Shown: positions 15,234 through 33,137 of the stretch, piece by piece
Layout: the number at the start of each line of letters is the position of its first letter
Position numbering within the stretch: the stretch's first letter is position 1
Position numbers and translations under genes: made by a program
The notes under the pieces: generated by a model
Told to the model about the DNA's origin: nothing
The model's database searches: none
Seen by the model: the letters and a program-made list of their open reading frames with translations, nothing else
NCBI GenBank assembly: GCA_022843285.1
Contig: JALHNY010000002.1
Coordinates: 21,124 to 85,123 of the forward strand
Length of the DNA stretch: 64,000 nt
Direction: 5' to 3'
DNA from: Minisyncoccota bacterium
Lineage (GTDB): Bacteria; Patescibacteriota; Minisyncoccia; UBA6257; 2-01-FULL-56-20

Positions 15234-15305
15234 TCCGGCGTAGCTCAATGGTAGAGCGTCTCGCTGTTAACGAGGGGGTTGTAGGTTCGAATCCTACCGC
15301 CGGAG
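15234..15305 (+). tRNA. tRNA-Asn (anticodon GTT)
   Basis: Manual cloverleaf: acceptor tccggcg/cgccgga, D-stem gctc/gagc, anticodon stem tctcg/cgagg with loop ctGTTaa, T-arm gtagg ttcgaat cctac, discriminator G, no encoded CCA. Confidence 0.85.
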
Positions 15306-16901
15306 CATTACAGGATTTTCAGCGTAGATTGGCCCCATATCGCCCGTATTTGCTGGCGTTTTCACAGGTTCTAACCTCGTATTTATCGCTCGGACCTCTT
15401 TTGCCATCTCCAGCATAGGGAATAGCAAATCGTCCCAGGAAATGCTGAGTTCTTTGTCTTTGAGGGTGAGGTTATAACCTAGCGCGGCGAATAGGTCCTT
15501 TTTCACGGTAAGGTCGTTCTGCTCTTGTGCGTTGGCAAAGGCAGCAGCCGCTTTCTCAGCGAAGCTGAAGCCTGCCTCGGCTATGTCCAGCCAGTTCTCC
15601 ACGCGCTGGTCCGTGTCTGTGAGCTGGGCGGAGAGCCGCTCCTTCTCTCCCAGGAGGATTGCCTTCCTGTCAGCGAACTCGTCCTCGGTAATCTCGCCTC
15701 CCGCCCGCATATCTATCAGGTTGTTCAGCTTCCTGACGCAGGCCTCGTAAGCGCGGCGCTGTGCCCCGTAGATGCGGTCGCGGTCCTCGGTCTCCTGGGT
15801 ATTGGCTTCCTTGAGCGCGGCGAGCGCCCAGTCCTTGAAGTCGGCGGGTATCTCTATCTTGGCAAGCTCGCGGGCAATCTGCTTCTCCAGCTCTTTCTCC
15901 TCAATGGCGGGCTGGGTGCAGGTCGGGTCTTTCCGCCGCGTGCAGTGGTAATAGGTGTAGCGGTGCGTCTTGCCGTTCTTCTGGTGCTTCACCTTCTCCT
16001 CGGCGGTTATCATCGCGCCGCATCCGCCGCAGTGCAGAGGACCGCGGTAGGCAATCTCGTGCTCCTTGCCTCGCGGGGTGCTTTTCCTGCCGAGCAGGAA
16101 CTGGATACGCTCGTACTCCTCGCGCGTAATCATCGGCTTGTGGATGCCCTTGTGCCAGTTGCCGCTGTCCACGGGATACTCAAAGTCACCGTAGTAGAAC
16201 GAGCGCGTGAACATCAGATAGACATTGCTCCTAGTGAGCGGCTTGCCCTTCGGCATCCGCAGGCCCCACTCCTTCGTCGCTATCTCCAGAATGCGGGGAG
16301 GGGAGTGCTGGCCCGTGAGCATCAGGTCAAACATCTTCCGCACGATGTCAAAGCGCTCTGGGTCGGGGTGGATGGTCTTGTTGCCCTTCTCGGCGTACTT
16401 GTCGTTCATATAGCCGACAGGCGCTTGCGCGGGATAGACGCCCATCAGCGCCTTCTGGCCGAGGCCGCGCTTTACATCGCGCCCCTTCTTCGCGCTCTCG
16501 TACTGGCTCTGGGAGAGCGCCATCTGGAGCATCCAGATGCCCTCGGGGGTGTTCTCAAAGTGGTAGGTAACGAGCTTGAGGTCGCCAATCACATTCGTGC
16601 GGAGCATATAGGTGATTTCTCCCGCGTCCTTCTCGTTGCGTGAGAGGCGGTCTGGGTGCCAGGCGATGATGCCCGTGCGCTCGCCCTTGCGGATACGCTC
16701 CAGCATATCGGCGAACGAGGGGCGGTTGAACGGCTTGAAGGCGCTGGCCTTGTCCTCAACGAACTCAATATCCAGGTCGCCGAACTTCTCCCTGAGCTTC
16801 TCTTTCTGGGCAGGGATGGAGAGCGCCTGGCGCTCCTCGCCTTCGCTGGATTTCCGCACATAGGCGAAGTACTTGATTGTGGTTGATGTTGATTTAGACA
16901 T
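15294..16901 (-). CDS. large serine recombinase (resolvase/invertase N-domain, recombinase domain, zinc ribbon)
   Basis: N-terminus MSKSTSTTIKYFAYVRKSS(catalytic Ser)EGEERQALSIPAQ...GIIAWHPDRLSRN; C-terminal CGGCG...C ribbon and coiled-coil; the last 4 codons overlap the tRNA T-arm. Confidence 0.85.
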   Translation of the reverse strand: MSKSTSTTIKYFAYVRKSSEGEERQALSIPAQKEKLREKFGDLDIEFVEDKASAFKPFNRPSFADMLERIRKGERTGIIAWHPDRLSRNEKDAGEITYMLRTNVIGDLKLVTYHFENTPEGIWMLQMALSQSQYESAKKGRDVKRGLGQKALMGVYPAQAPVGYMNDKYAEKGNKTIHPDPERFDIVRKMFDLMLTGQHSPPRILEIATKEWGLRMPKGKPLTRSNVYLMFTRSFYYGDFEYPVDSGNWHKGIHKPMITREEYERIQFLLGRKSTPRGKEHEIAYRGPLHCGGCGAMITAEEKVKHQKNGKTHRYTYYHCTRRKDPTCTQPAIEEKELEKQIARELAKIEIPADFKDWALAALKEANTQETEDRDRIYGAQRRAYEACVRKLNNLIDMRAGGEITEDEFADRKAILLGEKERLSAQLTDTDQRVENWLDIAEAGFSFAEKAAAAFANAQEQNDLTVKKDLFAALGYNLTLKDKELSISWDDLLFPMLEMAKEVRAINTRLEPVKTPANTGDMGPIYAENPVMLRR

Positions 16902-17048
16902 AGGAAAAGCCCGAGAGGGACGGCCTGGTTGACCCGATATATGCAACCACAGGGATTAGCAGATAGCGGCAAACCGCCCCTCTCGGGCTACTATCAACGC
17001 TAATAACTGGAATGGTATTCATAATCGGGTCAACATAGACATTATAAG

Positions 17049-18191
17049 CTATTTGTCGCCTAAAAGCCGCCGCAGGTACGCCCGCACCTCGTCTGGTAGC
17101 TCTACCGTGCCGTCGCTGTTTTGGAAGTCCCGCAGCTCGCGCACGATGTCCACCGCGCGTTCCACGCCCATACTGCCGTACCCATACGCGCCGAAAGTTG
17201 TGCCGATGTTCTCGTGCCCGAGCGTCAAGCTGATAGCCCGCTTTTCCTCCTCGGTGAGGCGCATCTTGCTCATCAAGCTCACCACCAAGTGTCGGTACGA
17301 GTGAGGATGGTAGTACTTCACGCCAGCGTTCACGCACCGCTTCTCAAATATCTTCCGAGCGCTTCCCGTATCGTTCCAAAAGGAACGGCCGATACTGTCC
17401 TTGCTGTACGCCTTCTTCGTGCTGATTTCGCTTGAGGTAGCGGGGAAGATAGGGTCGTCTGGGGCAAATCCCTTGCTCTCCAGGTACTCGTACCACTCCA
17501 GGAAGTAGCGGCTGGGCTCATCCCATCCGATAGGGAAGAACGTCGTGATGATGGTCTTTGAGTTCTTTGTCCGCACGCCATCCGCAGGGTTCTGATGGAT
17601 GCGACGGGTCTCTTTGTCAAAACTCTTCATCTTGAGCGAGATGATGGCGCTGATGCGGCAGCCCGTAATGAGGGCAAAGCTGATGAGCGCCCTGTCGCGC
17701 ATAGCTATCTCGTTCGTGGGTTCAATGCTCCCGATTACTTGTTGCACCTCCTCAAGCGTGGGCATCGCCTTCGTCGTACCCGATAGGACAATCTGCATAT
17801 CCTTCTTGGAGATGCGTAGGAAGTCAGTATCTGCCTTGACCAGCTTCTGGCTATATTCGGGTTGAGAGGCAAGCCACTGGAAGAACTCCTTTACTCGCCG
17901 CAGGTAGTGATACCGAGTGGCGGGCTTCAGCTTCCCGTCGGGTGTCTTTGTCGTTTTCCGAATGAGCCACTCGCAGTACGCGGCTGCTTTGGACTTATTG
18001 AAGGTCGCAAAGTCCTCGCCACCAGAGAAAACCTGCCACTGACCGATGGCGTCGGCATAGTCGTTTACGGAGCTCTCGGAGAAGCCCTTTGCTCCGCGCA
18101 GGTGCTCAAAGAAACCGCGCTTTGCCTGCTCGTTTCGGTATGGGGTTTTGTCTTGTTGGTTGGGAGTGTTCATATTCGTGCAAACCGACAT
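17049..18191 (-). CDS. tyrosine-type site-specific recombinase/integrase
   Basis: 380 aa; N-terminal SAM-like domain; C-terminal catalytic region with ...HPHSYRHLVVSLM... and R..LGH..I..T (R-H-R-Y family pattern). Confidence 0.8.
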   Translation of the reverse strand: MSVCTNMNTPNQQDKTPYRNEQAKRGFFEHLRGAKGFSESSVNDYADAIGQWQVFSGGEDFATFNKSKAAAYCEWLIRKTTKTPDGKLKPATRYHYLRRVKEFFQWLASQPEYSQKLVKADTDFLRISKKDMQIVLSGTTKAMPTLEEVQQVIGSIEPTNEIAMRDRALISFALITGCRISAIISLKMKSFDKETRRIHQNPADGVRTKNSKTIITTFFPIGWDEPSRYFLEWYEYLESKGFAPDDPIFPATSSEISTKKAYSKDSIGRSFWNDTGSARKIFEKRCVNAGVKYYHPHSYRHLVVSLMSKMRLTEEEKRAISLTLGHENIGTTFGAYGYGSMGVERAVDIVRELRDFQNSDGTVELPDEVRAYLRRLLGDK

Positions 18192-18542
18192 TTACATCTG
18201 AAATAACGGTTTCTGATAGTACTTTTGAGAGGGTTTGATTGTCCTGCTCATTTTCACGCTACAGACCGCGCACAGCCCCTTCTCCTTGTCGCCCACGACC
18301 TTCTTTGAGCCGCGCTTTGCTCGCCGCGGGCGCTTACAGCCGAAGCAAAAGAACTCGTTTTGCTTGAGCGGTGCCTTGCGCTTCTCGTCTTTGCTTTTCA
18401 GGAATGCTTGCAGGTCCGAGCCATAAATGAGGTATGGCTTTGAGCAGCCAGCAACGGTCTTGAGGCCGCTCTCCATCCAGCGAGAAACCGTCTTTTCGTT
18501 GACGCCGAGTATGCTCGTCAGCTCTGAAACGGTGTAGCTCAT
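18192..18542 (-). CDS. HTH DNA-binding protein with a C-terminal CxxC...CxxC zinc ribbon
   Basis: Starts MSYTVSELTSILGVNEKTVSRWMESG (HTH), later CFGC...CAVC; the ORF-track N-terminal extension overlaps the upstream small ORF and is rejected. Confidence 0.6.
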   Translation of the reverse strand: MSYTVSELTSILGVNEKTVSRWMESGLKTVAGCSKPYLIYGSDLQAFLKSKDEKRKAPLKQNEFFCFGCKRPRRAKRGSKKVVGDKEKGLCAVCSVKMSRTIKPSQKYYQKPLFQM

Positions 18543-18546
18543 ATTT

Positions 18547-18720
18547 TTATGTATTCCTTGCGGATTGATTTTGCTCATACGCGATGGCACGGCTCACGAT
18601 TTCAAGCAGGCGGCAAAGACGGAGCCCCTTCTCAAGGGCTTCGTCTTTGCTGATGTCTTTCCCAAAGTGCTTTTTGTAAAGCGCTTGGAACTCGGCAATC
18701 TGCTTGTCCGAGAGCCGCAT
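18547..18720 (-). CDS. 57-aa hypothetical protein (MRLSDKQIAEFQALYKKHFGKDISKDEALEKG...)
   Basis: ORF not in the track (<60 aa); its stop TAA lies 4 nt before the ATG of the HTH gene, suggesting an operon. Confidence 0.4.
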   Translation of the reverse strand: MRLSDKQIAEFQALYKKHFGKDISKDEALEKGLRLCRLLEIVSRAIAYEQNQSARNT

Positions 18721-18722
18721 CT

Positions 18723-19076
18723 CTACTCGCTGTAGAGGCGGTTCTTGAGCATCTTGAGCGTGTCAAAGTAGCTGCGTGCTTTGACCTCAAGACGGTCCGA
18801 CCAGTACTCGTCCACGACACCGTCCAGCCCGTCAGTGCGCTCAAAGACGAACTGGACCTTGTGCTTGTCGCTGCGCTTCAGGGAGGCGAGCTTGAAATGG
18901 GCGCAGACCAGCGCCGTTGCCAGCCCCAGGTCGTATGAGTAAAAAAAGTTGACGCTATCCTCAAAGGGGACGAGCTGGTAGCCCTCCTTTGGACGCTTCT
19001 TCGGTTTGTTCTTGTCCATCGTAATCTGTAGTAATGGGTTATTGAGAGCGCTTCGCGCGAAACGAAAAACGCACAC
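18723..19076 (-). CDS. small hypothetical protein (tentatively DUF5659-like; probable internal start MDKNK at 19022)
   Basis: Pattern ...YSYDLGLATALVCAHFKLASL...VQFVFERTDGLD...YWS...LKMLKNRLYSE resembles small proteins common on phage/mobile elements. Confidence 0.45.
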   Translation of the reverse strand: MCVFRFARSALNNPLLQITMDKNKPKKRPKEGYQLVPFEDSVNFFYSYDLGLATALVCAHFKLASLKRSDKHKVQFVFERTDGLDGVVDEYWSDRLEVKARSYFDTLKMLKNRLYSE

Positions 19077-19137
19077 TCATCGTGTGCGCTGGAGACCTCT
19101 ACTTCGGTCTGCTATTTCTCCCTTTTCTCCCGCTTTT

Positions 19138-20055
19138 CTACGGGCTCGGTTCCCTCAACATATAGTGGCCGCTGGTAGGAGTTACGAGTATGTCGTCTAT
19201 GCCCGCATACGCTTTCTTGATGCTGCTTTTCATCTTGTGGCACACCTTCTGTGCCGCGTCAGCAACATCGTGGCCGAGCTTCTTTTTCATATAAGCAGCG
19301 ATGTCCCTATGCGTTGCTTGCTCCTGCCAGTGCTCCCAGAGGTAGCTCAGGAAGTGGTGCTCGGGGCTATTGAGGCCCGCCGTGTAGACGAGAGTGCCGT
19401 CCACAAAGAGCTGCGCCTGCGACGGGTCAAAGCGGACGCGCCGCCCACCCTCCATACGCGCCTTGAACGCCTGCGCATCAAAGAGTGTTTTTGCCCTGGG
19501 CTTTGCCAAGATGTCCGCGAGGGCACACTGGCGCGTGGCGTCCGCTCCAGCGGCAAGCGATACCTCGGCGAGGTTCGTGAGCAATACCCTCGGCTCGTTC
19601 CCCATCGTGGCGAAGCGCAAGGATGCCTCCTGAGCGTCGTGCGTGCGGAGATAAAAGACCTGCGTCGTGGCGGTCTCCGTCGTATAGCTTCCCAGGGCCG
19701 AGAAGGGGTCGCCTGAACGCGCCGTCGCGTCAGCCGCTTGGATGCCTAGCTCCTGGGCAATCAGCTCAGTGAAGGCAGGGTGGTCGTATTCGTATACCGT
19801 TAGCTTCTCGTCCGTGAGGAGCTTCTTCCCGCCACCGTTCTCGCACACATAGGAGAGCACGCCATCGTCGTTCCGTACCTGGCACTCGTGCCCTTCGTTG
19901 CAGAGCCCGCACTCCACGCTCTCCAGATTGGAGACCCGCTTGAGGACTTTCTTGGCAACCAGCGCGGCGAACCCCACCTCGTGCCCCTTCTTATCGGCAA
20001 TGCCGAAAGAGACGCGTGAGGAGCGTGCGGTGATGCGCTCCAGGAACCAGCGCAT
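19138..20055 (-). CDS. hypothetical protein with a Cys cluster (ECGLCNEGHECQV...YVCENGG), island cargo
   Basis: 305 aa, lower-GC codon usage, no recognizable enzymatic motif. Confidence 0.55.
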   Translation of the reverse strand: MRWFLERITARSSRVSFGIADKKGHEVGFAALVAKKVLKRVSNLESVECGLCNEGHECQVRNDDGVLSYVCENGGGKKLLTDEKLTVYEYDHPAFTELIAQELGIQAADATARSGDPFSALGSYTTETATTQVFYLRTHDAQEASLRFATMGNEPRVLLTNLAEVSLAAGADATRQCALADILAKPRAKTLFDAQAFKARMEGGRRVRFDPSQAQLFVDGTLVYTAGLNSPEHHFLSYLWEHWQEQATHRDIAAYMKKKLGHDVADAAQKVCHKMKSSIKKAYAGIDDILVTPTSGHYMLREPSP

Positions 20056-20059
20056 TGGT

Positions 20060-21220
20060 TTATGCGACCGCGATGCCCCAGTCTTTCAACAGCCTACGCA
20101 CCGTATCGTCCTGGGCGCGGTTCTTGAGGTCGCAGTTGTTCGGAGGCGAGATAGTAACCGAGACCTGCTTGCGGCGACCCTTGCCCACCTGGGCGAATAT
20201 GACCGTGATTGTGATGCTCTCCGTCTCCCATCCGTCGTTCCTGTCCAGCCCGAGCTCCTTGAGGATTTCTTGCACGGCATCGGTGCCCGTGTACTGCCCC
20301 TTCCCGCGCACATCAATGAACAGCCTGTGCGGTACGCCCTTGCTCTTGAGGCGGATGGACTTGAGGAAGGAGCGCTCCACGCCATAAGAGCTGTCAGCGA
20401 CGAGCGTGAGCTTTGAGAGGTCGGTCGTGGGCGCGAGCGAATAGCGCGGCTCCTCGGTATTGAGGTCGCTGATGCCGAGGAAGTGCTTGGCAAAGCGCAG
20501 CTGGAGGTCCCTGACTATATCCTTGCCGCCAATGGCACGGACGCCGAGGTGCATTAGCTCGGGCTTATAAATGAAGATGGCGTCAAAGACGGGCTTGCGG
20601 GTGATTTTCTCGTCCAGCTTGCCGTCAACGAAGGCGGTATCGCGCGTCGGCAGGTCCTCCAGGTAAGCGCGAAGGATGATGTTCTCGCCCTCTCGGAAAG
20701 CCTTTATCTTGCACTGCTCGCCCTTGTAAGTGTTCTTATACGCGGCACGCACCTCCGCCTCAAACGCATTTATCTGCGCATCGGTGATTTCGTCCACGGG
20801 CTTCGTGCTCGGGAGCGACACCTCGGTAACAGCGTGGCTCTCTATGTTGGCTCGGCTGTAGTAGGTATCAAACTCGTCTGGATAGTTGATGTAAGCCAGC
20901 AGCGCACGCTCGTCGTTGTTCTGAGCCCGCTTCTCAATGTGCTCGGTGCGATTGATATCAGGGAAGTAGTCGCAGAGCGCCTTGATGTGGTTCTCCGAGG
21001 ACAGGGAGTTGATATAGGCGAACTCCATAAACACGCGGTCGCGTACCTGCTCGTCCTGTTCGTGCATAAAGACCATAAAGCGGTCCGCGCAGTCCTCGCG
21101 GCTCTCATCCTTCGGACCAGACGGGAAAGTAACGCCGTGGCGCTTCTGGAGGTACTCGGCGAGAAGCTCGCAGCTTATGTGCTGCGCGAAATCACGCGGG
21201 TCAGAGTAATGCGATGCCAT
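20060..21220 (-). CDS. hypothetical protein, island cargo (386 aa)
   Basis: Tandem with 19138..20055 (5-nt gap); no recognizable domain by eye. Confidence 0.55.
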   Translation of the reverse strand: MASHYSDPRDFAQHISCELLAEYLQKRHGVTFPSGPKDESREDCADRFMVFMHEQDEQVRDRVFMEFAYINSLSSENHIKALCDYFPDINRTEHIEKRAQNNDERALLAYINYPDEFDTYYSRANIESHAVTEVSLPSTKPVDEITDAQINAFEAEVRAAYKNTYKGEQCKIKAFREGENIILRAYLEDLPTRDTAFVDGKLDEKITRKPVFDAIFIYKPELMHLGVRAIGGKDIVRDLQLRFAKHFLGISDLNTEEPRYSLAPTTDLSKLTLVADSSYGVERSFLKSIRLKSKGVPHRLFIDVRGKGQYTGTDAVQEILKELGLDRNDGWETESITITVIFAQVGKGRRKQVSVTISPPNNCDLKNRAQDDTVRRLLKDWGIAVA

Positions 21221-21300
21221 TGTAATCGTAATGGGGAGGGCCGCTTCATCAGTGCGCGGATTTACCGCGTGAGCCCGATACTGTAAGGTAATGGTACTAA

Positions 21301-21522
21301 ATGGAGCGCACTAAGCAACCAAAGCAGGGGAATGGCAAGCTGCCTGAGCTCCTGACGCTCAAAGAGGCCAGTGAAATCCTCAAAGTCCATCCCAACACGC
21401 TCCGCGCCTGGGATAAGAAGGGCATCCTCGTTGCTATACGGTTTGGAGAGCGGGGCGTTCGCCGTTATCGTAAGGACGACATCCTGAAGCTCATCTCACA
21501 GCCACGCCACTCACCAAAATGA
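21301..21522 (+). CDS. MerR/excisionase-family HTH DNA-binding protein (Xis-like, or the R-M controller)
   Basis: LLTLKEASEILKVHPNTLRAWDKKGILVAIRFGERGVRRYRKDDI = HTH_17-like. Confidence 0.65.
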   Translation: MERTKQPKQGNGKLPELLTLKEASEILKVHPNTLRAWDKKGILVAIRFGERGVRRYRKDDILKLISQPRHSPK

Positions 21523-21577
21523 CCTAATCACACCCAAAAAACATCTGCCTAAACCAGCACGGCACGGCAGAAAATAT

Positions 21578-21624
21578 CCCGACCAAGATAGTACGCTGTC
21601 CATCTATGGGCACTCTTGGTCGGG
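21578..21624. promoter_or_regulatory. 11-bp inverted repeat cccgaccaaga N25 tcttggtcggg (candidate operator) upstream of mod; a third half-site cccgaccaa at 21717-21725 abuts the mod ATG
   Basis: Read directly in the sequence; lies between the HTH gene and mod. Confidence 0.45.
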
Positions 21625-21729
21625 TCGCAGTCCGAAAGGTCTGTGGGCAGTCCGCGAGGATTGTCGCTTCCGCTAGGTGGGCAGCGTTCTATCGTCCAGA
21701 GCGGAGGCACATAAATCCCGACCAAAAAA

Positions 21730-23529: not shown

Positions 23530-23534
23530 GGCTG

Positions 23535-23924
23535 ATGAGCGCTATGATTACCCAGGTAATGGCAGTCGCACACGAGGAGCATCTACAGGGCAAGCTGGAG
23601 CTCGCATTGAGCTGCTACAGCGACATCTTTGAGTTGCTCAGCGAGGAGGCGGACAAGCAGGCGAGCGCTGCCGATGGCACGCGCGTGCAGGTAGGGAGCC
23701 TGACAGTCGCTACGACGCTGCTCTCCGAAGCGAAGAAGAAGCAGTACCTGCGGCGCGACAATCTCGCCGCTATCGTGAGCAATAAGATAGGCGTTATCTA
23801 CGCGGAGCTCGGCCAGGAGGAAGACGCGCTGCACTGGCTTCGCCAGGCGATAGAGCTCACGCCCGACGGCGAGGACTATCCCGAGCCGCAGGACAACCTC
23901 AAGCACCTATACCCTGATGGATAG
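23535..23924 (+). CDS. TPR-repeat protein embedded between mod and res
   Basis: 129 aa; TPR-like helices (LELALSCYSDIFELL..., IGVIYAELGQEEDALHWLRQAIELTPD); starts 6 nt after the mod stop and overlaps the res start by 8 nt. Confidence 0.55.
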   Translation: MSAMITQVMAVAHEEHLQGKLELALSCYSDIFELLSEEADKQASAADGTRVQVGSLTVATTLLSEAKKKQYLRRDNLAAIVSNKIGVIYAELGQEEDALHWLRQAIELTPDGEDYPEPQDNLKHLYPDG

Positions 23925-26442
23925 CCTGTTCCTCAAGAAAATCCAGGAGCGCGTCGCGGAATGGCGCGAAGGCGACTATCAGGGTGTCCTGGACGAGACC
24001 CGTACCATTCTCAGGTACATCAAGACGGTGCGCTTCCTTCACGAGCCGCAGGTGGAGGCGCTGGAGACCTACATCTATCTCAAGGAGGTCCTGGGGAACC
24101 GCCCCTCGGCGGAAGTGTTCGGAGCATCCTTCGGGAATGAGCTGGAGTTCCTGCGAGCCCTCGGTATCACGGATGCGCAGGTCGCCGAGCTCGCCTTTGA
24201 CCCCAGGAAGGACGAGAGGATACAGGAGCTGCTCGGCGCTATGTTCGGCAGGTCCGACTACGCGAACCAGGTCTACGCGCTCACTATGGGTTCGGGGAAG
24301 ACCATCCTGATGGCGACGATGATGGTCTATGACTTCGTGCTCGCGTTCCACCATCCTGACGACGAGCGCTTCGCCAAGAACATCCTGGTGTTCGCGCCAG
24401 ACACGACCATCATAGACAGCCTCAAGGAGATAAAGACCTTTGACTACACCAAGGTCCTCCCGAAGGGCTACCGCAATATCCTACTCAACATCAAGTACCA
24501 CTACCTGGAGAGCCCCGAGACGCCTCTTTCCCCGATAGGCAACTTCAACATCATCGTCTCAAACTCGCAGAAGATAATCCTGAAGCGGAGGTCAGCGGAC
24601 CGTCGCAAGTCGCTGTTTGTTGAGCGCGACAAGAGGCAGATGCAGGAGAACAGCCGCCTCCTGGCAATCCGCCAGCTGGAACGGCTCTCCATCTTCGTGG
24701 ACGAGGCGCACCACAGCTACGGCGAGACGATGGACAAGGAGCTCAAGCGGACGCGCGAGACGATTGGCTACTTGCACGGCAACAAGCCGCTCGTCTCGGT
24801 CGTGAACCTCACGGGCACGCCGTATGTGAAGAACAAGATGGTGGCCGATGTCGTCTATCACTTCGGTCTCAAGGCGGGCATAGAGCGCGGCATCCTCAAG
24901 CAGGTCCGCATTCTGGACTACGGCAACGTGAAGTCGGAGCGGTTCGTTGATGAGGTCGTGGAGACCTTCCTGGGCGAGTACGGCGAGCAGCGTCTTGAGG
25001 GCAGGCTTCCCAAAATCGCCTTCTACGCGGCGAGCATCGCCGAGCTGCGGCAGGAACTCAGGCCAAGGATAGAGAAACTCCTCGCGCAGCGCGGCGTGTC
25101 CCTGGACAAGGTGCTGGAGTACCACACCGCGGCGGAAGGCAACAAGGATGAGTTCAAGCGGCTTGATACGGCGGAGAGCAACAAGCAGTTCGTGCTTCTC
25201 GTAGGCAAGGGGACGGAGGGCTGGAACTGCCGCTCGCTGGTGGCGTGCGCACTCTATCGTAAGCCCAAGAGCACCATATTCGTGCTCCAGTCCTCAACGC
25301 GCTGCCTGCGTTCCATCGGCGACAACTCCACCATCGGCCGCATCTTCCTGTCTCGCGAGAACTACCAGGTGCTGGACAAGGAGCTGCGCAGCAACTTCTC
25401 TGTCAGCGCGAGCGAGCTCTCGGCACAGGACCAGCGGACGGTTGACCACGAGCTGAAGGTGGAGAAGCGCAAGACGATTACGGTCAAGAAGGTCCTCAAG
25501 GAGGTGGTCTCCGCGAAATCCGTGGACGCCTCGCGCATCAAGGTGGACTTCAAGCGTTTCAAGCCAGCCGACTACCAGGCCTATGTGAGCGAGGGCGGCA
25601 TCCTGCTCGGCGCGAACAAGCGGGCTGGTTACAAGGAGGCGCGGGCAGTCCGCAAAATCAGCGAGACGGGGGACTTCACCTACTACGAGATTGTGGAGCT
25701 TATCAATCGGCATACGCACCTGCCGTGCTCGGTCGTTGACGACATCCTCTCTGGCAGCGGCAAGACGCAGGAGGCGCTGGTGCGGGATGCCAACAAGACG
25801 CCAGCCCTCGTGCCTTTCCTCATCCAGGAGGTCCTGATGGCTGCCTACCAGTACGAGGAGCGCACCGAGGTGGTGGAGGAGGAGCTTGAGCTGACCAAGC
25901 TGTTCCCGTTCAAGATAAGCGTCCAGAAAGGCAGGAGCGCCCTGGTCGTGTATCGGGAGGAGGGAGAGGAGGACGGGCACACAGGCCGCCTAGGGTTCCA
26001 CATCAATCCTTACAGCTTTGACAGCGGGGACGAAAAGGACCTGTTTCGTTACCTGCGCGACTACCTGGAGAAGGACGAGGGTATCGCGGACATCTACTTC
26101 ACGGGCGGCGCTCCCTACGCAGTCCATAACGACTTCCACTTTGAGTACTGGAGCCCCGAGCTCAGGCGGATGGCACGCTACTTCCCCGACTTCCTCATTG
26201 AAACCACGAAGGGTCGCTACCTGGTCGTGGAGGTGAAGGGGAACGACGAGAAGCTGGATTACGAGGCGAACCAGAAGTCCTATAAGGGCAAGCGAGAGCA
26301 GCTGACCAACGAGGTCTTCGCCAAGGAGGTGGGCTTCACCGAGTTCCAGAAGGTGAACAAAGGGTTTGAGTACCGCATCGTCTTCAACGCGACCGCGAAG
26401 CAAGCCCAGATGCGCCTCCTGGAAGACATCAAGCGCCTATGA
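23917..26442 (+). CDS. res: Type III restriction enzyme Res subunit (SF2 helicase-nuclease)
   Basis: Walker A TMGSGKT, DEAH box FVDEAHH, and a helicase C-terminal region; 841 aa. Confidence 0.8.
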   Translation: MDSLFLKKIQERVAEWREGDYQGVLDETRTILRYIKTVRFLHEPQVEALETYIYLKEVLGNRPSAEVFGASFGNELEFLRALGITDAQVAELAFDPRKDERIQELLGAMFGRSDYANQVYALTMGSGKTILMATMMVYDFVLAFHHPDDERFAKNILVFAPDTTIIDSLKEIKTFDYTKVLPKGYRNILLNIKYHYLESPETPLSPIGNFNIIVSNSQKIILKRRSADRRKSLFVERDKRQMQENSRLLAIRQLERLSIFVDEAHHSYGETMDKELKRTRETIGYLHGNKPLVSVVNLTGTPYVKNKMVADVVYHFGLKAGIERGILKQVRILDYGNVKSERFVDEVVETFLGEYGEQRLEGRLPKIAFYAASIAELRQELRPRIEKLLAQRGVSLDKVLEYHTAAEGNKDEFKRLDTAESNKQFVLLVGKGTEGWNCRSLVACALYRKPKSTIFVLQSSTRCLRSIGDNSTIGRIFLSRENYQVLDKELRSNFSVSASELSAQDQRTVDHELKVEKRKTITVKKVLKEVVSAKSVDASRIKVDFKRFKPADYQAYVSEGGILLGANKRAGYKEARAVRKISETGDFTYYEIVELINRHTHLPCSVVDDILSGSGKTQEALVRDANKTPALVPFLIQEVLMAAYQYEERTEVVEEELELTKLFPFKISVQKGRSALVVYREEGEEDGHTGRLGFHINPYSFDSGDEKDLFRYLRDYLEKDEGIADIYFTGGAPYAVHNDFHFEYWSPELRRMARYFPDFLIETTKGRYLVVEVKGNDEKLDYEANQKSYKGKREQLTNEVFAKEVGFTEFQKVNKGFEYRIVFNATAKQAQMRLLEDIKRL

Positions 26443-26939
26443 AGCTCCTACTGCTCATCATCGTGCTCGCTGGGCTCGCGGCACTTGCCGTATGGAAGAC
26501 GCGCGAGGAGGGCGGCGTTGAAGCAGCGAAGTACCACTACAAGCGGCGGGGTTTCCTGATGTCCCGTGCCGAGCACGAGTGCTACGACGCCTTGCTCGCG
26601 GCCGTCGGCGGCGAGTACCACATCTTCGCCCAGGTGCATCTGCCGAACCTCGTGGACAGCAAGGTAGTGGGGCAGAACTGGCGCGGCGCGTTCAAGCACA
26701 TCAGCCAGAAGTCCGTGGACTTCGTACTCTGCGACAAGGCGTACATCGCGCCGCGGCTCGCCATTGAGCTGGACGACAGGAGCCACGAGCTACCCGAGCG
26801 GCAGATACGCGACGCCGAGGTTGAGCGCATCCTGCGCGAGGCAGGTGTGCCCCTGCTCCGTTTACAGAACCGCGGCAGCTTCAATCCCGTGGAGCTCGCG
26901 CAACAGGTCCGAGAAGCAGTAGCGCCAGGGGTGGGGTGA
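26439..26939 (+). CDS. DUF2726 (NERD/PD-(D/E)xK-like) domain protein coupled to res
   Basis: ATGA overlap with the res stop; N-terminal TM; conserved ...CYDALLAAVGGEYHIFAQV...DFVLCDK...IELDDRSHE pattern. Confidence 0.55.
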   Translation: MKLLLLIIVLAGLAALAVWKTREEGGVEAAKYHYKRRGFLMSRAEHECYDALLAAVGGEYHIFAQVHLPNLVDSKVVGQNWRGAFKHISQKSVDFVLCDKAYIAPRLAIELDDRSHELPERQIRDAEVERILREAGVPLLRLQNRGSFNPVELAQQVREAVAPGVG

Positions 26940-27589
26940 ACATCTACCTGGACATAGACGGCGTGCTCCTCACCAAGAAGGGGGAGCCAGCCGAGGGCGT
27001 AGCGGGCTTCCTGCGTCGCGCCGTGGCCTCCCACGAGGTCTACTGGCTCACGACCCACTGTAAGGGCGATACAGGCCCCGTGGTGGCCCACCTGCGCCAC
27101 AGGCTGCCCCAGGAGGCCGTAGAGCTACTCCAGGGCATCAGGCCGACCACCTGGGGCTTCCTCAAGACGGATGCCCTGGATTTCAGCCAGGACTTCCTTT
27201 GGTTTGACGACTACCTGATGGATGCCGAGAAAGTGGTCCTGGAGCGGCACGGCAGTCTCCAGAAGCTCGTAGGAATGATTTGCCATTCGTATGGCCTCGC
27301 AGAGCCCGCATCGCTCTCAGGGCGCATCCACATTGAGCACGGCCTGGTAATCAGCGCATCGCCCGATGCCGTCTTAGGTCTCTACCGCGATGTCGCGGCC
27401 GACCGAGAGGCCGTTGAGAGCGCCTTCTGCTACTACGCGCTCTTGCTTCTGAAGGAGGGTGAGCGGGGAGGCAACTTCACGATTGAGCGCATCAAGGAGC
27501 TGTTGGAGAGCGACAAGGACCTCGCTGGCTCAAGGGCAGCCGCGCTGCTCAAGTCCTATCTCCTGAGAGCGGACGCTTCCTGGTCCTGA
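26936..27589 (+). CDS. HAD-superfamily-like hydrolase, hypothetical
   Basis: GTGA start/stop overlap with the previous gene; N-terminal HAD motif I-like IYLDIDGVLL. Confidence 0.5.
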   Translation: MNIYLDIDGVLLTKKGEPAEGVAGFLRRAVASHEVYWLTTHCKGDTGPVVAHLRHRLPQEAVELLQGIRPTTWGFLKTDALDFSQDFLWFDDYLMDAEKVVLERHGSLQKLVGMICHSYGLAEPASLSGRIHIEHGLVISASPDAVLGLYRDVAADREAVESAFCYYALLLLKEGERGGNFTIERIKELLESDKDLAGSRAAALLKSYLLRADASWS

Positions 27590-27593
27590 GCGA

Positions 27594-27923
27594 TTAGAAG
27601 CAGAAGGTATCGGTCTCGCTGCACACGCGGTCCACGTTGTCCTCAACATCGTCCATTCTCTCCTGGAGGTCGTAGATTTCGCTCTCCGCCCATCCGCCAT
27701 CTCCGTCATTCACCTTGTCCTCCAGGTCGCTGATGCGCGAACCGTAACTGCTCTGTCCGTAAGAGGAGCTCTCCACATCGTCAATCCTCTCATTGAGGCC
27801 AGCTATCTGCGCCCACTGCCAGAAGAACGCAATCACGAGTATGGCGATGATGATAGAAGCGGCCTTATTGCCTTTCACCCACGCCTTGAGGTCTGCCAGG
27901 CGATTGCCGTGCGGGGTGCTCAT
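27594..27923 (-). CDS. small hypothetical membrane protein with acidic DDVE repeats
   Basis: 109 aa, one TM helix (AASIIIAILVIAFFWQWAQIAGL). Confidence 0.45.
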   Translation of the reverse strand: MSTPHGNRLADLKAWVKGNKAASIIIAILVIAFFWQWAQIAGLNERIDDVESSSYGQSSYGSRISDLEDKVNDGDGGWAESEIYDLQERMDDVEDNVDRVCSETDTFCF

Positions 27924-27933
27924 TGTCTCGCGC

Positions 27934-28179
27934 TCAGGGGTGGAACTTCGGGTTAGGGTTCCTTCCTATCACCTCAAGCGTGTCCTGGTGGAGGATGCGC
28001 CCGCAATCGGCGCAGACATACAGGCCGTCCCAGTCGCTGCCGATTACTGGCTCCATCTCGTTGCCCTCCTTGTCGCAGGGATAGAAGCCGCCTCCAGAGG
28101 GGGTGTTGCCGCAGATGCAAATCCAGGCCTCGTCGTTATCTGGCTCGTGGGTGATACGTTCCTTGGTCGGGGTTTCCAT
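27934..28179 (-). CDS. small zinc-ribbon protein
   Basis: CICGN...CDKEG...CADCGR motifs. Confidence 0.45.
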   Translation of the reverse strand: METPTKERITHEPDNDEAWICICGNTPSGGGFYPCDKEGNEMEPVIGSDWDGLYVCADCGRILHQDTLEVIGRNPNPKFHP

Positions 28180-28232
28180 AATGCTCTAAGCGTACCGCAT
28201 CAGGCTCTAAAACAAAGGGCTTTTCTGCTACA

Positions 28233-28261
28233 TAGACATTTCTCTCCGTATTATGTATAAT
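28233..28261 (+). promoter_or_regulatory. promoter of the DGR target gene (TAGACA-17 nt-TGnTATAAT extended -10)
   Basis: tagaca at 28233-28238; tgtataat at 28254-28261; the aggaga SD precedes ATG 28333. Confidence 0.5.
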
Positions 28262-28332
28262 ATGGATAGTTTCAGGAGGCGCTGCACGGCAGTTGCTCAC
28301 CCGAAATCAAAAGAGAATATAGGAGAAAAGAA

Positions 28333-28926
28333 ATGGGAAAAGTCATTGGTATTGAACAGTCCCACGCACTCTTGGCTATCTTGGCTCAGAACGTGGATTG
28401 GAGCGCGATTGAAGCGCAAACGGCGCAAGCCATCATCCTCGACCCGAAAGGGGCGGGCGCGAACTTCACGAAGTTCATCCAGCAGGGAGCGCGTGTCCTC
28501 AACGGCACGGGCAAGCTGATGGTTGACTACTCAGTGAAACCGTCGCTCATCTCGCTCGCCGTTGAGAGCCACGTTGACCGTTCGGACATCGCAGAGATAG
28601 ACATCAGCAAGCTCACCCGCGTGCAGATGCTCCGCGACGGAGAAAGCAGCATCTCAGGACACGATTACCTGAAACGCCTCAAAGAAAGCGGCGTGCCGAT
28701 GCTTGATGTCCGCGTGATGGAGGAGCTGCTCAAGCCCGAAAACCAGCACCTCATCCCCGAGGACTGGAAGAAAGGTCTGACCTACTTCTTCGGAACGATT
28801 TATCGCGTCTCGGTCGGCTTCCTCTACGCCCCCTACCTCAACTGGCACGTCGGCGAGTGGTTCTGGGACTACTACTGGCTCGGCCTCGACTGGGACGTCG
28901 GCGAGTTCGGTGCGTCCCTCGCGTAA
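28333..28926 (+). CDS. DGR variable (target) protein; the C-terminal VR in a putative C-type-lectin-like fold ends ...EFGASLA
   Basis: The C-terminal 40 codons are near-identical to the downstream TR except at TR adenines; no signal peptide. Confidence 0.85.
   Translation: MGKVIGIEQSHALLAILAQNVDWSAIEAQTAQAIILDPKGAGANFTKFIQQGARVLNGTGKLMVDYSVKPSLISLAVESHVDRSDIAEIDISKLTRVQMLRDGESSISGHDYLKRLKESGVPMLDVRVMEELLKPENQHLIPEDWKKGLTYFFGTIYRVSVGFLYAPYLNWHVGEWFWDYYWLGLDWDVGEFGASLA
28803..28923 (+). repeat. DGR variable region (VR)
   Basis: 121-nt alignment to TR 29264-29384 with 21 mismatches; 20 fall at TR adenines; GC-rich 3' IMH-like end ggtgcgtccctcgcg. Confidence 0.85.
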
Positions 28927-28980
28927 TCCCTCCGACCTCATTTCGCTTAGTAAGTTCGGGACCTTTGTCCCTTTGGATTT

Positions 28981-29020
28981 CACCCCTGTTCGGTTCTACC
29001 GCAGGGGTGATTTATATTTC
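28981..29020 (+). terminator. stem-loop plus T-rich tract downstream of the VR (terminator or DGR-associated hairpin)
   Basis: cacccctg ttcggttctaccg caggggtg followed by atttatattt; a smaller hairpin gggac cttt gtccc lies at 28958-28971. Confidence 0.5.
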
Positions 29021-29263
29021 AGGCCTTGCGTGATACCGTCGGGTCGGACAGTAGGCCCGCGTGCCCGCGGCTACGGTTGCGGACAGCCGAGCTCCGAGAG
29101 CCCTGGAGGTGGAATGTCGCGGGGTACGCCTCGCGCCAGCGCCCTGCCTGGCACTCAAAAAGAAATCTAAATCGGTGCAGGACGCTATGGGATTACTATC
29201 CCGAATACGATGCAGCCCCGAGAGCATTCAAGGGGCGGTGGCACTGGCGGCATCCTGTACAGT

Positions 29264-29384
29264 TCGCAACTCGGACGGCAACCTCTACGCCCCGTACCTC
29301 AACTGGAACGACGGCAAGTGGAACTGGAACTACAACTGGCTCGACAACGACTGGAACGACAACGAGTTCGGTGCGTCCCTCGCA
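29264..29384 (+). repeat. DGR template region (TR), non-coding RNA template
   Basis: Adenine-rich in AAC codons (in-frame reading ...NLYAPYLNWNDGKWNWNYNWLDNDWNDNEFGASLA); the cognate of the VR. Confidence 0.85.
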
Positions 29385-29416
29385 ATCTGGATTTCTCCTC
29401 CCGCCTGGTTCCCCAA

Positions 29417-29716
29417 TCAGGCGGGAGTTTCCTTACGAGCCACGGCCTGGCGGCTCCAGCCGCCGAGCATCCTGCCTATCTCCGCGAGCGGCTCTGACAG
29501 CGCGACATACTTCTTGTTATCCAGCGCCTTCACCTCCCAGATGAGCTGGAGGAAGAACTTGAGGAGGTCCAGCTTGGCGATGGCCCGACCGAGGACCGCC
29601 GCCTTCTGCTCCTTCGGCGCGTAGCTGGCGACGAACACCAGCTCAATCGTGTCGGCGAACACCGCGTCTATCTTCTCGCCCAGGGTGTAGCGAGCGGTCT
29701 TCGGGATGTGGGGCAC
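29417..29716 (-). CDS. avd: Avd-like accessory variability determinant (four-helix-bundle protein family)
   Basis: 99 aa, helical; C-terminal ...YVALSEPLAEIGRMLGGW resembles the conserved ...IGKMLxGW end of four-helix-bundle/Avd proteins; lies between TR and RT on the opposite strand. Confidence 0.5.
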   Translation of the reverse strand: MPHIPKTARYTLGEKIDAVFADTIELVFVASYAPKEQKAAVLGRAIAKLDLLKFFLQLIWEVKALDNKKYVALSEPLAEIGRMLGGWSRQAVARKETPA

Positions 29717-29775
29717 GAACTCGTGCCACTGCTTGTAAGCCGATACCAGGTGCTGGATTATCGGGATATTACTGC

Positions 29776-29786
29776 GGGGGGGGGGG
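29776..29786. repeat. G11 homopolymeric tract in the avd-RT divergent intergenic region
   Basis: gcGGGGGGGGGGGcg at 29776-29786. Confidence 0.9.
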
Positions 29787-29805
29787 CGTTCTAAGAACAG
29801 TCATT

Positions 29806-30804
29806 ATGAGAAGTCAGTTACCCATTACCTACGACGACATCACGAGCGCAGAGAACCTCTTGAGCGCGTGGGGCGAGTTCGTGCGTGGGAAGCGGGCTAA
29901 GAAGGATGTACAGGATTTTTCGTTCCGCCTGATGGACAACATAATGCAACTAAGGAGCGAACTCGTCAATATGCAGTACGAGCACGGCCCCTACGAGGCG
30001 TTCAACATATCCGACCCCAAGCCGCGGAGCATCCATAAGGCCTCCGTGCGCGACAGGCTGCTGCACCACGCCATCTACCGCCAGCTCTATCCCTTCTTTG
30101 ACCGCACCTTCATCGCCCAGTCCTACTCGTGCCGCAACGAGAAAGGGGCGCACAAGGCGATGGACACCTTCCGCTCTTACGCCTACGACGTGAGCCACAA
30201 CCACACGCGGACCTGCTGGGTGCTCAAGTGCGACATCCGCAAGTTCTTCGCCAGCGTGGACCAGGCCGTTCTCCTTGAGGTGCTGCGAGCCTACATCCCT
30301 GACCCCAAAATCCTCTGGCTCCTGGAGCGCGTCGTAGGGAGCTTCAACTCAGGCAGGGAAGGCAGGGGACTGCCGCTTGGCAACCTCACCTCGCAGCTCC
30401 TGGTGAACATCTATATGAACGAGTTTGACCAGTTCGCCAAGCACGGCCTCAAGGCGCGTCGCTATCTGCGCTATGCGGACGACTTCACCTTCCTCTCGGA
30501 CGACAGGCAGGAGCTCGTGGACCTGATACCGCGCATCAGCGAGTTTCTAAGGGAACGGCTCAAGCTGGAGCTGCATCCCGACAAGCTGTTTATCAAGACC
30601 TTCGCCTCGGGCGTGGACTTCCTTGGCTGGGTGCATTTCCCCGACCACCGCGTGCTGCGGACCGTTACCAAGCGGCGAGCGCTCAAGGGCTTCAAGAGCA
30701 AGCCGACCCCAGGGACACGCGCCTCCTACCTCGGCCTCCTGACGCACGGCAACGCCCACAAGCTCTCGCGGACACTGACACCTGCGCCTACTCCAGAGCA
30801 GTGA
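29806..30804 (+). CDS. DGR reverse transcriptase
   Basis: RT motifs: GLPLGNLTSQLLVNIYMNEFD (LGxxxSQ typical of DGR RTs), YADD box RYADDFTFL; 332 aa. Confidence 0.9.
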   Translation: MRSQLPITYDDITSAENLLSAWGEFVRGKRAKKDVQDFSFRLMDNIMQLRSELVNMQYEHGPYEAFNISDPKPRSIHKASVRDRLLHHAIYRQLYPFFDRTFIAQSYSCRNEKGAHKAMDTFRSYAYDVSHNHTRTCWVLKCDIRKFFASVDQAVLLEVLRAYIPDPKILWLLERVVGSFNSGREGRGLPLGNLTSQLLVNIYMNEFDQFAKHGLKARRYLRYADDFTFLSDDRQELVDLIPRISEFLRERLKLELHPDKLFIKTFASGVDFLGWVHFPDHRVLRTVTKRRALKGFKSKPTPGTRASYLGLLTHGNAHKLSRTLTPAPTPEQ

Positions 30805-31081
30805 GCGCGAGGGCGGGGTAAATCACGCGACGGCCTGGCGGAAGTAAAAGAGGGACTTTCCAGAGAGCAAAGCGGTTCTAACTTCGTCCAGTCCGCGGAG
30901 CCAGTTAGCCGAATTCGGGCAAGAATATCGTCAAAACCGTTCTTAGCTTCATATTTCACAAGTGTTTTGTTTGTGAGGACTAGTTCGGTAAATAGCAAAG
31001 TCGCGATTTCGTTTCGCTCGCTGTCCAGGAGTAGACTGAGTTTTTCCTAAAGTGCAATAAGCTAAAATAGACCACATTGCC

Positions 31082-31825
31082 ATGGGTACCTGGGGAACGT
31101 CACTCTTTTCCGACGACACCGCTTCCGATGTTCGCGGTGACTTCAGGGACTACCTCGGAGACGGCAAATCGACCGAGGAGGCGACCCAGCTCATCCTGAA
31201 AGACTACGAAGGGTACGTGGATGACCCGGACGACGGCCCCGTATTCTGGCTTGCTCTCGCGAGCACGCAGTGGAAACTCGGCCGGCTGCTGGACTGGGTC
31301 AGGGACCGGGCCATCCAGGTCATCGATGCTGGCGCCGACCTGGAACAGTGGGCAGCGGACAACCCCAAGGACCTGCCCAAGCGTAAGGCCGTGCTCGAGA
31401 AGCTGCGGGCGGAGCTGCTGTCTCCGCAGCCCGCGCCAAAGAAGGTCGCCAAGAGGTACCGGGATACCACTCCCTTCGAGGTGGGCGACGTCATCAGCTA
31501 CCGGACCAGGGCGGGCAAATTCGTGCTGTTTCGTGTCATCGGTCACCACGAGGACAAGGGTGGCAGGTCACCCGTGGCGGAGCTCCTGGACTGGGTTGGT
31601 GAGCGCTCTCCCGAGGAGAAAGAAATTCGCAAGATGAAACCCTTGCAGCACCCCGTGTGGGGCAGCAAGATGCTCCTGGGAGCGGTTTCCGCGAGAGAGT
31701 ACCCCGCGGATCGCGTAAGCTTGGTCATGAAGGGCAGTAAGCCGGCACAGAAAATGGGGAGACATTTTGTTGAGCTCTGGCGTGGACTCGATGACTCCCT
31801 TGAACGTCAATATGGGATCCAGTAG
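31082..31825 (+). CDS. hypothetical protein (MGTWGT... N-terminus, DUF4259-like)
   Basis: 247 aa; high-GC codon usage resumes. Confidence 0.55.
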   Translation: MGTWGTSLFSDDTASDVRGDFRDYLGDGKSTEEATQLILKDYEGYVDDPDDGPVFWLALASTQWKLGRLLDWVRDRAIQVIDAGADLEQWAADNPKDLPKRKAVLEKLRAELLSPQPAPKKVAKRYRDTTPFEVGDVISYRTRAGKFVLFRVIGHHEDKGGRSPVAELLDWVGERSPEEKEIRKMKPLQHPVWGSKMLLGAVSAREYPADRVSLVMKGSKPAQKMGRHFVELWRGLDDSLERQYGIQ

Positions 31826-32895: not shown

Positions 32896-33137
32896 CGGTG
32901 CGGGCAGCCCGCCCAGCAGCACGGCCGCCTTTGCCCCGCTGCCAGCTCTTCGCGGGTGCGCCGGACTCTCCGCTCTCTAGTCTCAGGTCGCTTGGGAGAG
33001 ATCACCCAGCAGATCCACTCGTTGCGCGCGAGGGGAGTGATGTTTTCCCACGCGGTGAGCATGGCAACATTCGCGAGGAGCGCCCTGCGCAGATCTTCTG
33101 GCAGGTCGTGCGCCACGCCTCTCGACACTCTTCCCAT
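32892..33137 (-). CDS. YdeI/OmpD-associated family (bacteriocin-protection-like) small protein
   Basis: ...DLPEDLRRALLANVAMLTAWENITPLARNEWICWVISPKRPETRERRVRRTREELAAG matches the family pattern (EY..WI..AK.ETR.RR...L..G). Confidence 0.5.
   Translation of the reverse strand: MGRVSRGVAHDLPEDLRRALLANVAMLTAWENITPLARNEWICWVISPKRPETRERRVRRTREELAAGQRRPCCWAGCPHR

Follow-up and report, generated by a model that had tools for sequence, protein, structure and literature searches.

We analyzed a stretch of 64,000 nt from the Minisyncoccota bacterium contig JALHNY010000002.1 (the window; all coordinates are window positions unless another locus is named), in which a tRNA-Asn gene is followed by genes for a large serine recombinase (LSR) and a tyrosine recombinase, by a Type III restriction-modification (R-M) operon and by a diversity-generating retroelement (DGR). 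A sequence-only reading of this DNA had described an element of about 16 kb integrated at the tRNA gene. It was borne out as a horizontally acquired element and the size was nearly exact, with the real right end at 30901. It is quite likely that we are dealing with a 15.6-kb integrative island which was inserted by its own LSR at the extreme 3' end of tRNA-Asn. Sequence comparison supports the boundaries of the element, its mobility between hosts, the linkage of LSR and tRNA genes and an attachment-site geometry in which a motif is displaced by 5 bp; the catalysis itself would be performed by the LSR. Using ARAGORN and Rfam for tRNA calls, Pfam for domains and PHROG and PADLOC for further scans, we found the following features:

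15234-15305/6, plus strand: tRNA-Asn(GTT), the target gene and left arm B of attB (ARAGORN, Rfam)
15284-15292, plus strand: T-loop motif GGTTCGAAT, the proposed zinc-ribbon-domain (ZD) motif of the attB half-site
15294-16901, minus strand: LSR, 535 aa from ATG (Resolvase, Recombinase and Zn_ribbon_recom domains)
15301-15306: left copy of the 6-bp common core CGGAGC (attL), with the crossover inside
16902-17048, minus strand: intergenic region between tyrosine recombinase and LSR, with two interleaved perfect inverted repeats
17049-18173/18191, minus strand: tyrosine recombinase, 374 aa, with Phage_integrase catalytic domain and SAM-like N-terminal domain (Pfam)
18192-18542, minus strand: HTH_17 excisionase-like protein whose C-terminus bears a CxxC..CxxC motif, encoded directly upstream of the tyrosine recombinase in the same operon
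18547-18720, minus strand: 57-aa open reading frame (ORF), conserved backbone gene
18723-19019, minus strand: DUF5659 protein, conserved backbone gene
19138-20055, minus strand: unk305, 305-aa backbone protein
20060-21220, minus strand: unk386, 386-aa backbone protein matching phrog_37634
21301-21522, plus strand: 73-aa MerR/HTH_17 protein, second excisionase-like gene (gene call and Pfam assignment made on contig L001 and transferred to the window)
21546-21665, plus strand: LOOT RNA motif (Rfam RF03000) upstream of mod, 63 bits versus a gathering score of 46
21730-23529, plus strand: Type III Mod (N6_N4_Mtase; PADLOC MTase_III, E 1e-69)
23544-23924, plus strand: TPR protein within the Type III R-M operon
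23917-26442, plus strand: Type III Res (ResIII domain and weak REase_III C-terminus)
26439-26939, plus strand: DUF2726 nuclease-like protein
up to 28179: three small ORFs between the DUF2726 gene and the DGR, without assignment
28333-30804, plus strand: whole DGR, beginning with its target gene (28333-28926), which holds the variable repeat (VR, 28803-28922)
29264-29383: template repeat (TR) of the DGR
29417-29716, minus strand: bAvd of the DGR (match obtained on the identical gene in L008)
29806-30804: reverse transcriptase (RT) of the DGR, RVT_1 domain
30874-30882 and 30896-30901, plus strand: right end, the P arm of attP now in attR, consisting of the T-loop mimic GGTTCTAAC, 13 nt and the core CGGAGC

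The LSR carries the domains PF00239 (E 4e-19), PF07508 and PF13408, all above the Pfam cut-offs, its motif Y14-R16-K17-S18 is invariant in 22 homologues and its best PHROG match is phrog_95, integrase. The C-terminal domain matches weakly to that of the A118 integrase. Judged by its domains, the protein thus appears to be a serine integrase. Its stop codon TAG (15294-15296) falls in the 3' strand of the T-stem, which accounts for the 12-bp overlap with the tRNA seen already in the sequence-only reading, and the tRNA antisense strand supplies the codons for the final residues (L)RR as well as the stop. The tyrosine integrase with a helix-turn-helix partner was likewise recovered, as a Phage_integrase/SAM-like gene with an HTH_17 gene directly upstream; a domain scan recognized no arm-binding domain in the tyrosine recombinase. 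Domain matches and the mismatch pattern between TR and VR also agree with the cargo named before. Mod lies beside Res, which argues for a Type III R-M system. TR and VR are 120 nt long and differ at 21 TR adenines and at one other position inside the repeat, and this adenine-biased pair in combination with RT and bAvd points to a DGR. We therefore regard the element, as far as can be judged from its genes, as a small integrative island composed of a conserved recombination backbone (LSR, tyrosine recombinase, HTH_17 protein, 57-aa ORF, DUF5659 protein and the two uncharacterized proteins unk305 and unk386) and of exchangeable defence and diversification cargo (Type III R-M, DUF2726 protein and DGR). 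PDB sequence and profile searches with unk386 and unk305 were empty. Phage structural or conjugation genes were recognized neither by Pfam on the scanned ORFs nor by PHROG on ten of them, with small ORFs of 57 and 81 aa lying outside the scans; the hallmarks of a prophage (capsid, terminase, tail) and of an integrative and conjugative element (relaxase plus type IV secretion) were absent among the ORFs scanned. IMG/VR contains only 11 relatives of the LSR, all of them distant.

We place the element between 15301/15307 and 30901. The left junction reads ..CCTACCGCCGGAGC / ATTACAGG.. with CGGAGC at 15301-15306, and the right junction reads ..CCAGTCCGCGGAGC / CAGTTAGCC.. with CGGAGC at 30896-30901. 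Contig L019, a JGI contig from a related host (bPH_2 neighbour protein 87% identical to that of the window), contains a compact form of the element at the same tRNA; DNA similarity between this contig and the window breaks off exactly at 30901 and the sequences are unrelated beyond this point. Five of six RT-carrying metagenome contigs also stop at 30901 and the remaining one at 30907. On the basis of these contig ends, the end of the L019 similarity and the CGGAGC copy, a weak resemblance noticed by eye at 30887-30903 turned out to be the true right junction. No clean direct repeat of the tRNA 3' end had been seen by eye, in agreement with our search, in which the 24-nt tRNA 3' end had no second copy in the window with up to 3 mismatches. 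A general repeat search returned nothing besides the TR/VR pair of the DGR, and no internal att-like repeat pair was present in 15.3-30.9 kb. The GC content is 0.576 over 15307-30901 versus 0.654 and 0.657 in the flanking host DNA, and the tetranucleotide distance from the host background amounts to 0.030-0.041 at 15-30 kb versus 0.012-0.023 elsewhere. The low GC content described earlier is therefore real, but modest, and the sharp drop at the tRNA did not hold: in 300-bp steps the shift is not razor sharp at this position, and GC alone fails to mark the right end. The suspicion that the genes at 31-34 kb belong to the island has to be given up, as the similarity to L019 ends at 30901 and chromosomal genes homologous to 32386-33131 occur in a relative without an intact element. 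Because of the latter match, host DNA has resumed by 32.4 kb. The intervening segment 30902-32385 still has a low GC content (0.577), contains one 247-aa ORF (31082-31825, weak DUF4259 match) and lacks an equivalent in the examined relatives; it may be the remainder of another insertion. Unitig end points were rejected for locating the exact crossover: the T-loop difference of the two hosts accounts completely for the left node (15293-15322), and the right-side nodes (30878, 30900, 30907) have no unique interpretation and serve only as support for a break near 30901.

By exact-protein look-ups the element was located in ten runs, all from a single metagenome series (SRR28154521-30). In these data a second host, host H (contig L001/L020), carries at its tRNA-Asn an element which is 99.87% identical on the DNA level over 7.4 kb, whereas bPH_2, HhH-GPD and QueA of both hosts are only 54, 62 and 58% identical. 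Host H has its own tRNA-Asn variant as far as the window-equivalent position 15292; from 15293 on, its sequence equals that of the window. In L020 the last bases specific for host H (15291-15292) and the first element-specific ones (15307 on) are 15 nt apart and lie inside single 31-mers, so the junction exists at the read level and is no graph chimera. A third host, host C (L024 and L025, bPH_2 73% identical to that of the window), is polymorphic at this site: the flanks of both contigs are near-identical (20 base differences in the first 4.7 kb), but L025 carries the element and L024 only a decayed LSR fragment. This fragment is a 195-aa chimeric ORF beside tRNA-Asn (L024 10676-11263, minus strand) with a P-loop ATPase-like N-terminus and about 70 aa similar to the LSR C-terminus, which ends with LLRR* inside the tRNA and is the decayed remnant of an older, related insertion. 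The right flank of L019 resembles this type of LSR remnant. In comparison with L019, synonymous divergence (dS) is 0.22-0.33 for element genes versus 0.63-0.69 for host-flank genes. The ratio of non-synonymous to synonymous divergence (dN/dS) of 0.12 and 0.08 suggests that both recombinase genes are under purifying selection. Furthermore, diverged variants occupy the same site in independent JGI, NCBI and other SRA assemblies. Taken together, the element moves between related hosts, probably within a high-GC lineage of the Candidate Phyla Radiation (CPR). The named relatives of the window host QueA are all Patescibacteria (49-54% identity); the host probably belongs to an unusually GC-rich CPR lineage, and a non-CPR host that had received a CPR element was dropped as an explanation on the same grounds. 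A genome-contig scan using the neighbouring bPH_2 protein as query gave no match. As a separate observation, the host H contigs of three samples (L021-L023) all end in the tRNA variable region (window-equivalent 15278), short of the element junction, which suggests that host H has another tRNA-Asn variant or an unoccupied allele.

The host differences also delimit the crossover. In host C the acceptor pair is compensated (5' TCCGACG / 3' CGTCGGA) and the occupied site retains the host-type T; therefore, the acceptor 3' strand is not element-borne and the crossover lies right of 15300. Since 30901 is the last position of element identity and element-specific sequence begins at 15307 on the left, the exchange took place inside CGGAGC, a hexamer made up of the four terminal acceptor bases, the discriminator and one additional base. 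The exact crossover dinucleotide would be GG, GA or AG within this core. Accordingly shared between both ends is CGGAGC alone, the host-specific acceptor base is kept and, unlike in Islander-type islands, no tRNA segment is regenerated. The tRNA remains intact and host-derived, the element adds no tRNA copy and only the 3' trailer changes. In the proposed reaction, attB would consist of the tRNA T-loop, the acceptor 3' strand and whatever sits downstream, and attP of the P arm at the right end (GGTTCTAAC-N13-CGGAGC), fused to the LSR gene at its 3' end. For attP, the predicted junction reads ..GTCCAGTCCGCGGAGC / ATTACAGGATTTTCAG.. and the predicted empty attB of the window host is ..CCTACCGCCGGAGC / CAGTTAGCCGAATTC..

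To which of the two recombinases the target belongs is indicated by related loci. A scan of genomes with the LSR alignment as query yielded 581 relatives, and all family counts given here refer to the best 80 loci of these 581, which are almost all from Patescibacteria/CPR metagenome-assembled genomes. In 60 of the 80 loci a convergent tRNA gene directly adjoins or overlaps the LSR ORF, in most cases with no tyrosine recombinase, and nine isotypes are represented (23 Gln, 15 Asn, 8 Ser, 5 Lys, 3 Gly, 2 Arg, 2 Asp, 1 Trp and 1 Ile). In six further loci the antisense T-arm occurs at this offset as well; in one of these, a group I intron hides the tRNA from ARAGORN. This intron was found just past the LSR stop in an Adlerbacteria genome (L028 9642-9965, minus strand), where the target tRNA is probably intron-containing. 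Neighbouring loci within LSR subclades usually share the tRNA isotype, and several clusters are mixed, mostly between Asn and Gln. No tyrosine recombinase match was obtained in 54 of the 80 loci. The most telling locus is L036: its tyrosine recombinase is 88% identical to that of the window and Mod, Res and DGR are similar, but LSR identity drops to 60% and the insertion site is tRNA-Gln. A closely similar tyrosine enzyme with another LSR at another tRNA implies that the target follows the LSR. Thus, neither L036 nor the majority of tRNA-linked LSR loci is in line with a tyrosine integrase setting the target site. By these comparisons the element behaves like a serine-integrase element and not like a classical tyrosine-integrase tRNA island, because there is no regenerated tRNA segment and the target does not track the tyrosine enzyme.

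Additional evidence comes from the geometry of the attachment sites. In the tRNA there are 17 nt from the start of the T-loop motif GGTTCGAAT to the core; for the near-identical GGTTCTAAC in the P arm this distance is 22 nt, so that the mimic is located exactly 5 bp farther from the crossover than the real T-loop. For the LI integrase the ZD motif occupies half-site positions 16-24 in attP and 11-19 in attB (Rutherford et al., 2013; PMC3783163). With GG as central dinucleotide (15302-15303, 30897-30898) the window motifs would fall on exactly these positions, the attB motif corresponding to positions 19-11; with GA or AG they would be off by one or two. The short core and the displacement of 5 bp correspond to the known attP/attB signature of serine integrases, and the LSR probably reads the T-loop sequence GGTTCGAA via its zinc-ribbon domain. 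Locus L108 has in common with the window only the 28-nt P arm with one mismatch, which there adjoins a different LSR gene of the family with no tRNA present, an arrangement that looks as expected for an unrecombined attP. The same difference is visible in the LSR C-termini. Proteins of the antisense-tRNA class end with ..NPxLLR(x)(x)DSN.. or an early stop, where DSN is the antisense reading of the T-loop, and the 21 proteins of the attP class end with ..NPxLLRxLDEVRT.., where VRT is antisense GGTTCGAAC in another frame. On the DNA level the motif offset is 11 in the antisense-tRNA class versus 16 in the attP class throughout the family.

Two minor observations concern these motifs. Within the LSR codons for the family-wide RLEP motif, GGTTCTAACCTCGT (15366-15379) is a direct copy of the right-end T-loop-like motif (30874-30887); it could be an accessory site or a plain by-product of protein conservation. 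Moreover, some attP-class LSR genes (P0112, P0111 and L062; ..LDEVRT.. tail, no adjacent tRNA) are located on contigs of 4.2 Mb, 347 kb and 186 kb, which implies an unrecombined attP inside chromosome-sized sequence. Such elements may be held there by another recombinase.

The most serious competitor is an insertion at tRNA-Asn by the tyrosine recombinase and its HTH_17 partner, with the LSR being responsible for inversion or resolution. The Islander paper (PMC4383910) presents tRNA genes as the textbook target of tyrosine integrases, and the tyrosine recombinase of the window has an Xis-like partner, is under purifying selection and seems to possess the catalytic-motif residues, as read by eye from the translation. 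In addition, a partial dyad (TCCTAC..GTAGGA in L019) is centred on the 6-bp core, an arrangement that would fit an overlap region of 6-7 bp. Nevertheless, we consider this scenario very unlikely. Most of the 54 LSR loci without a tyrosine recombinase match are still at a tRNA 3' end, L036 combines a closely similar tyrosine enzyme with tRNA-Gln and a different LSR, and the missing tRNA duplication and arm-binding domain speak against it too. Furthermore, the motif displaced by 5 bp is a hallmark of serine integrases, and it is the LSR frame, not the tyrosine recombinase gene, that spans the att site family-wide.

Integration by the LSR has a consequence for the enzyme itself: as attP lies inside the LSR reading frame, its C-terminal tail is replaced upon integration. 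The predicted tail of about 25 aa (..MLRGLDEVRTALLSGKSLFYFRQAVA) would be swapped for ..MLRR from the antisense tRNA, so that the free form is predicted to end with ..NPVMLRGLDEVRTALLSGKSLFYFRQAVA and the integrated form with ..NPVMLRR. Several attP-class homologues have similar long tails (LLxGKSxF). A regulatory effect of this tail swap is speculation at present.

The presence of two recombinase classes side by side had led to the suggestion of a composite or nested structure, i.e. two independent elements at one place, each with its own recombinase. A mosaic cargo would fit this idea (in L025, Mod and unk305 are 71 and 74% identical and neighbouring genes 95-100%), as would the closest LSR relatives (L028-L035), which lack a tyrosine recombinase. 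On the other hand, the order HTH_17, tyrosine recombinase and LSR on one strand with gaps of 58-250 bp recurs in 26 of the 80 loci across several LSR clades, including clades with LSRs of 41-46% identity, and Peribacteria loci conserve the whole six-gene backbone. This recurrence indicates a conserved module rather than an accident of nesting. The element travels as one unit of 99.87% identity, the variants of the window, L019 and L025 all retain both recombinases, even though L019 is compact, both genes show purifying selection, and the repeat search gave no second att-like pair within the element. A composite origin is therefore highly improbable, and we return to a single LSR-driven island with an accompanying tyrosine recombinase. 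We can only guess that the latter, together with its HTH_17 partner, acts in excision or directionality control or in multimer resolution. Serine integrases recombine attP with attB in one direction by a 2-bp staggered cut and depend on a directionality factor for excision; the two HTH_17 proteins (18192-18542 and 21301-21522) would be the candidates for such a factor.

Several points weigh against an LSR-driven insertion. The right-hand half-sites (P', B') have no clear inverted T-loop motif, and the identical 6-bp core with its partial dyad symmetry would also be compatible with a tyrosine recombinase whose overlap region spans 6-7 bp. Only this element and its L019 variant yielded paired ends with the +5 spacing; when the 80 related loci were searched for their own T-loop motif, spacer and core, the window alone was recovered, with the 8-kb flanks covered probably being too short. 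Neither an excised circle nor an empty site of the window host was found, and the predicted attP junction CCAGTCCGCGGAGCATTAYAGGATTTTCAG is absent from JGI metagenome contigs and IMG/VR. The "empty" site L024 keeps the older LSR gene remnant and hence is no pristine attB, and the occupied tRNA of host H has a U6-G67 wobble pair, with no empty H site for comparison. Least probable of all explanations is an old, fixed island that is not currently mobile and whose apparent spread reflects assembly chimeras via the shared tRNA or homologous recombination: although the missing attP circle, the origin of all near-identical copies from the one sample series and the host H contigs of other samples breaking inside the tRNA, a hint at tRNA variants, could be cited in its favour, the host H junction is present at the read level, diverged variants occupy the site in independent assemblies, the site is polymorphic within host C and both recombinases are intact and under selection.

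More tentatively, we propose that the window LSR could be a member of a large CPR-centred serine-integrase family. Members would use the T-loop and acceptor 3' end of tRNA genes of at least nine isotypes as attB and an attP with a T-loop mimic 5 bp further out, inside the integrase frame; the tail swap at each integration and excision would possibly serve as state sensor, and in many members the tyrosine recombinase and HTH_17 protein would form a second, functionally distinct system. No description of tRNA-targeting serine integrases in CPR was found in the searchable literature, and island databases may hold cases. The family is apparently widespread, undescribed and directed at tRNA genes, which is unusual for this enzyme class.

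Insertion at tRNA genes is generally seen as the domain of tyrosine integrases, and the serine integrases characterized so far mostly target protein-coding genes. With phage serine integrases (A118/LI, Bxb1, phiC31) the system shares the Resolvase N-terminal, Recombinase and zinc ribbon domains, the weak A118 C-terminal match, a recombinase gene beside attP, a very short core and a motif which is 5 bp closer to the centre in attB (PMC3783163). It differs by the tRNA 3' end instead of a protein-coding gene as target, by an attP inside its own recombinase frame, by the small size of an island without recognized phage genes, by the tyrosine recombinase as neighbour and in being known from sequence alone. 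Islander-type tyrosine-integrase islands at tRNA/tmRNA genes, for which Williams is said to have defined sublocation classes in 2002, are likewise adjacent to a tRNA with the recombinase at the tRNA-proximal end, and repeated use of the site leaves remnants, as seen here in the LSR fragments of L024 and L019. In contrast to these islands, which bring along a copy of the tRNA 3' segment to restore the gene and leave the displaced fragment as a direct repeat at the far end, there is no duplicated tRNA 3' segment, the 3' end is host-derived and the site-linked enzyme is a serine recombinase. In SCCmec, Ccr serine recombinases insert at the extreme 3' end of rlmH (orfX) without inactivating the gene, and CcrA and CcrB are both serine enzymes. 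Common to both systems are the LSR-driven insertion at the 3' end of a housekeeping gene that is spared, the absence of own transfer genes and the variable cargo, whereas the target (tRNA versus rlmH), the recombinase pair (serine and tyrosine versus both serine) and the host range are different. Finally, in the integration-dependent immunity of mycobacteriophages, reportedly described by Broussard and colleagues in 2013, attP is said to lie in the repressor gene and integration by a tyrosine integrase to alter its C-terminus. There, too, attP is in a coding sequence and the free and integrated forms encode different C-terminal tails; in our element the affected gene is the serine recombinase itself.

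If true, a serine-integrase family which reads the near-universal T-loop and inserts past the acceptor stem while sparing the tRNA extends the known target logic of these enzymes, and it provides a natural, many-fold replicated illustration of the 5-bp displacement rule between attP and attB. It would also offer candidate integrases with landing pads already present in most genomes. The near-identity of the copies in the window host and host H points to a very recent transfer of an island with defence and DGR genes among divergent bacteria of a probable CPR lineage, for which mobile elements are poorly known. Why serine and tyrosine recombinases are kept together is a testable question posed by these loci. 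We expect this to be relevant for specialists in site-specific recombination and CPR biology.

Some further features of the region are worth recording. The LOOT RNA sits between the 73-aa MerR/HTH_17 gene and the Type III mod gene, an arrangement repeated in L025 (16921-17040), and none was detected in seven other related loci scanned, L019 included; the main text of the source paper of this motif does not discuss it. The inverted repeats in 16902-17048 (GTTGACCCGAT..ATCGGGTCAAC and AGCCCGAGAGGG..CCCTCTCGGGCT) may act as a regulatory leader of the LSR gene or fold into alternative structures in front of it. The mean GC content of the host of about 0.65 would be unusually high for Patescibacteria. 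Its DNA also encodes an arginine-kinase-like ATP:guanido phosphotransferase (36513-37547, plus strand), next to which a D/E-rich ORF is located (35879-36406, plus strand).

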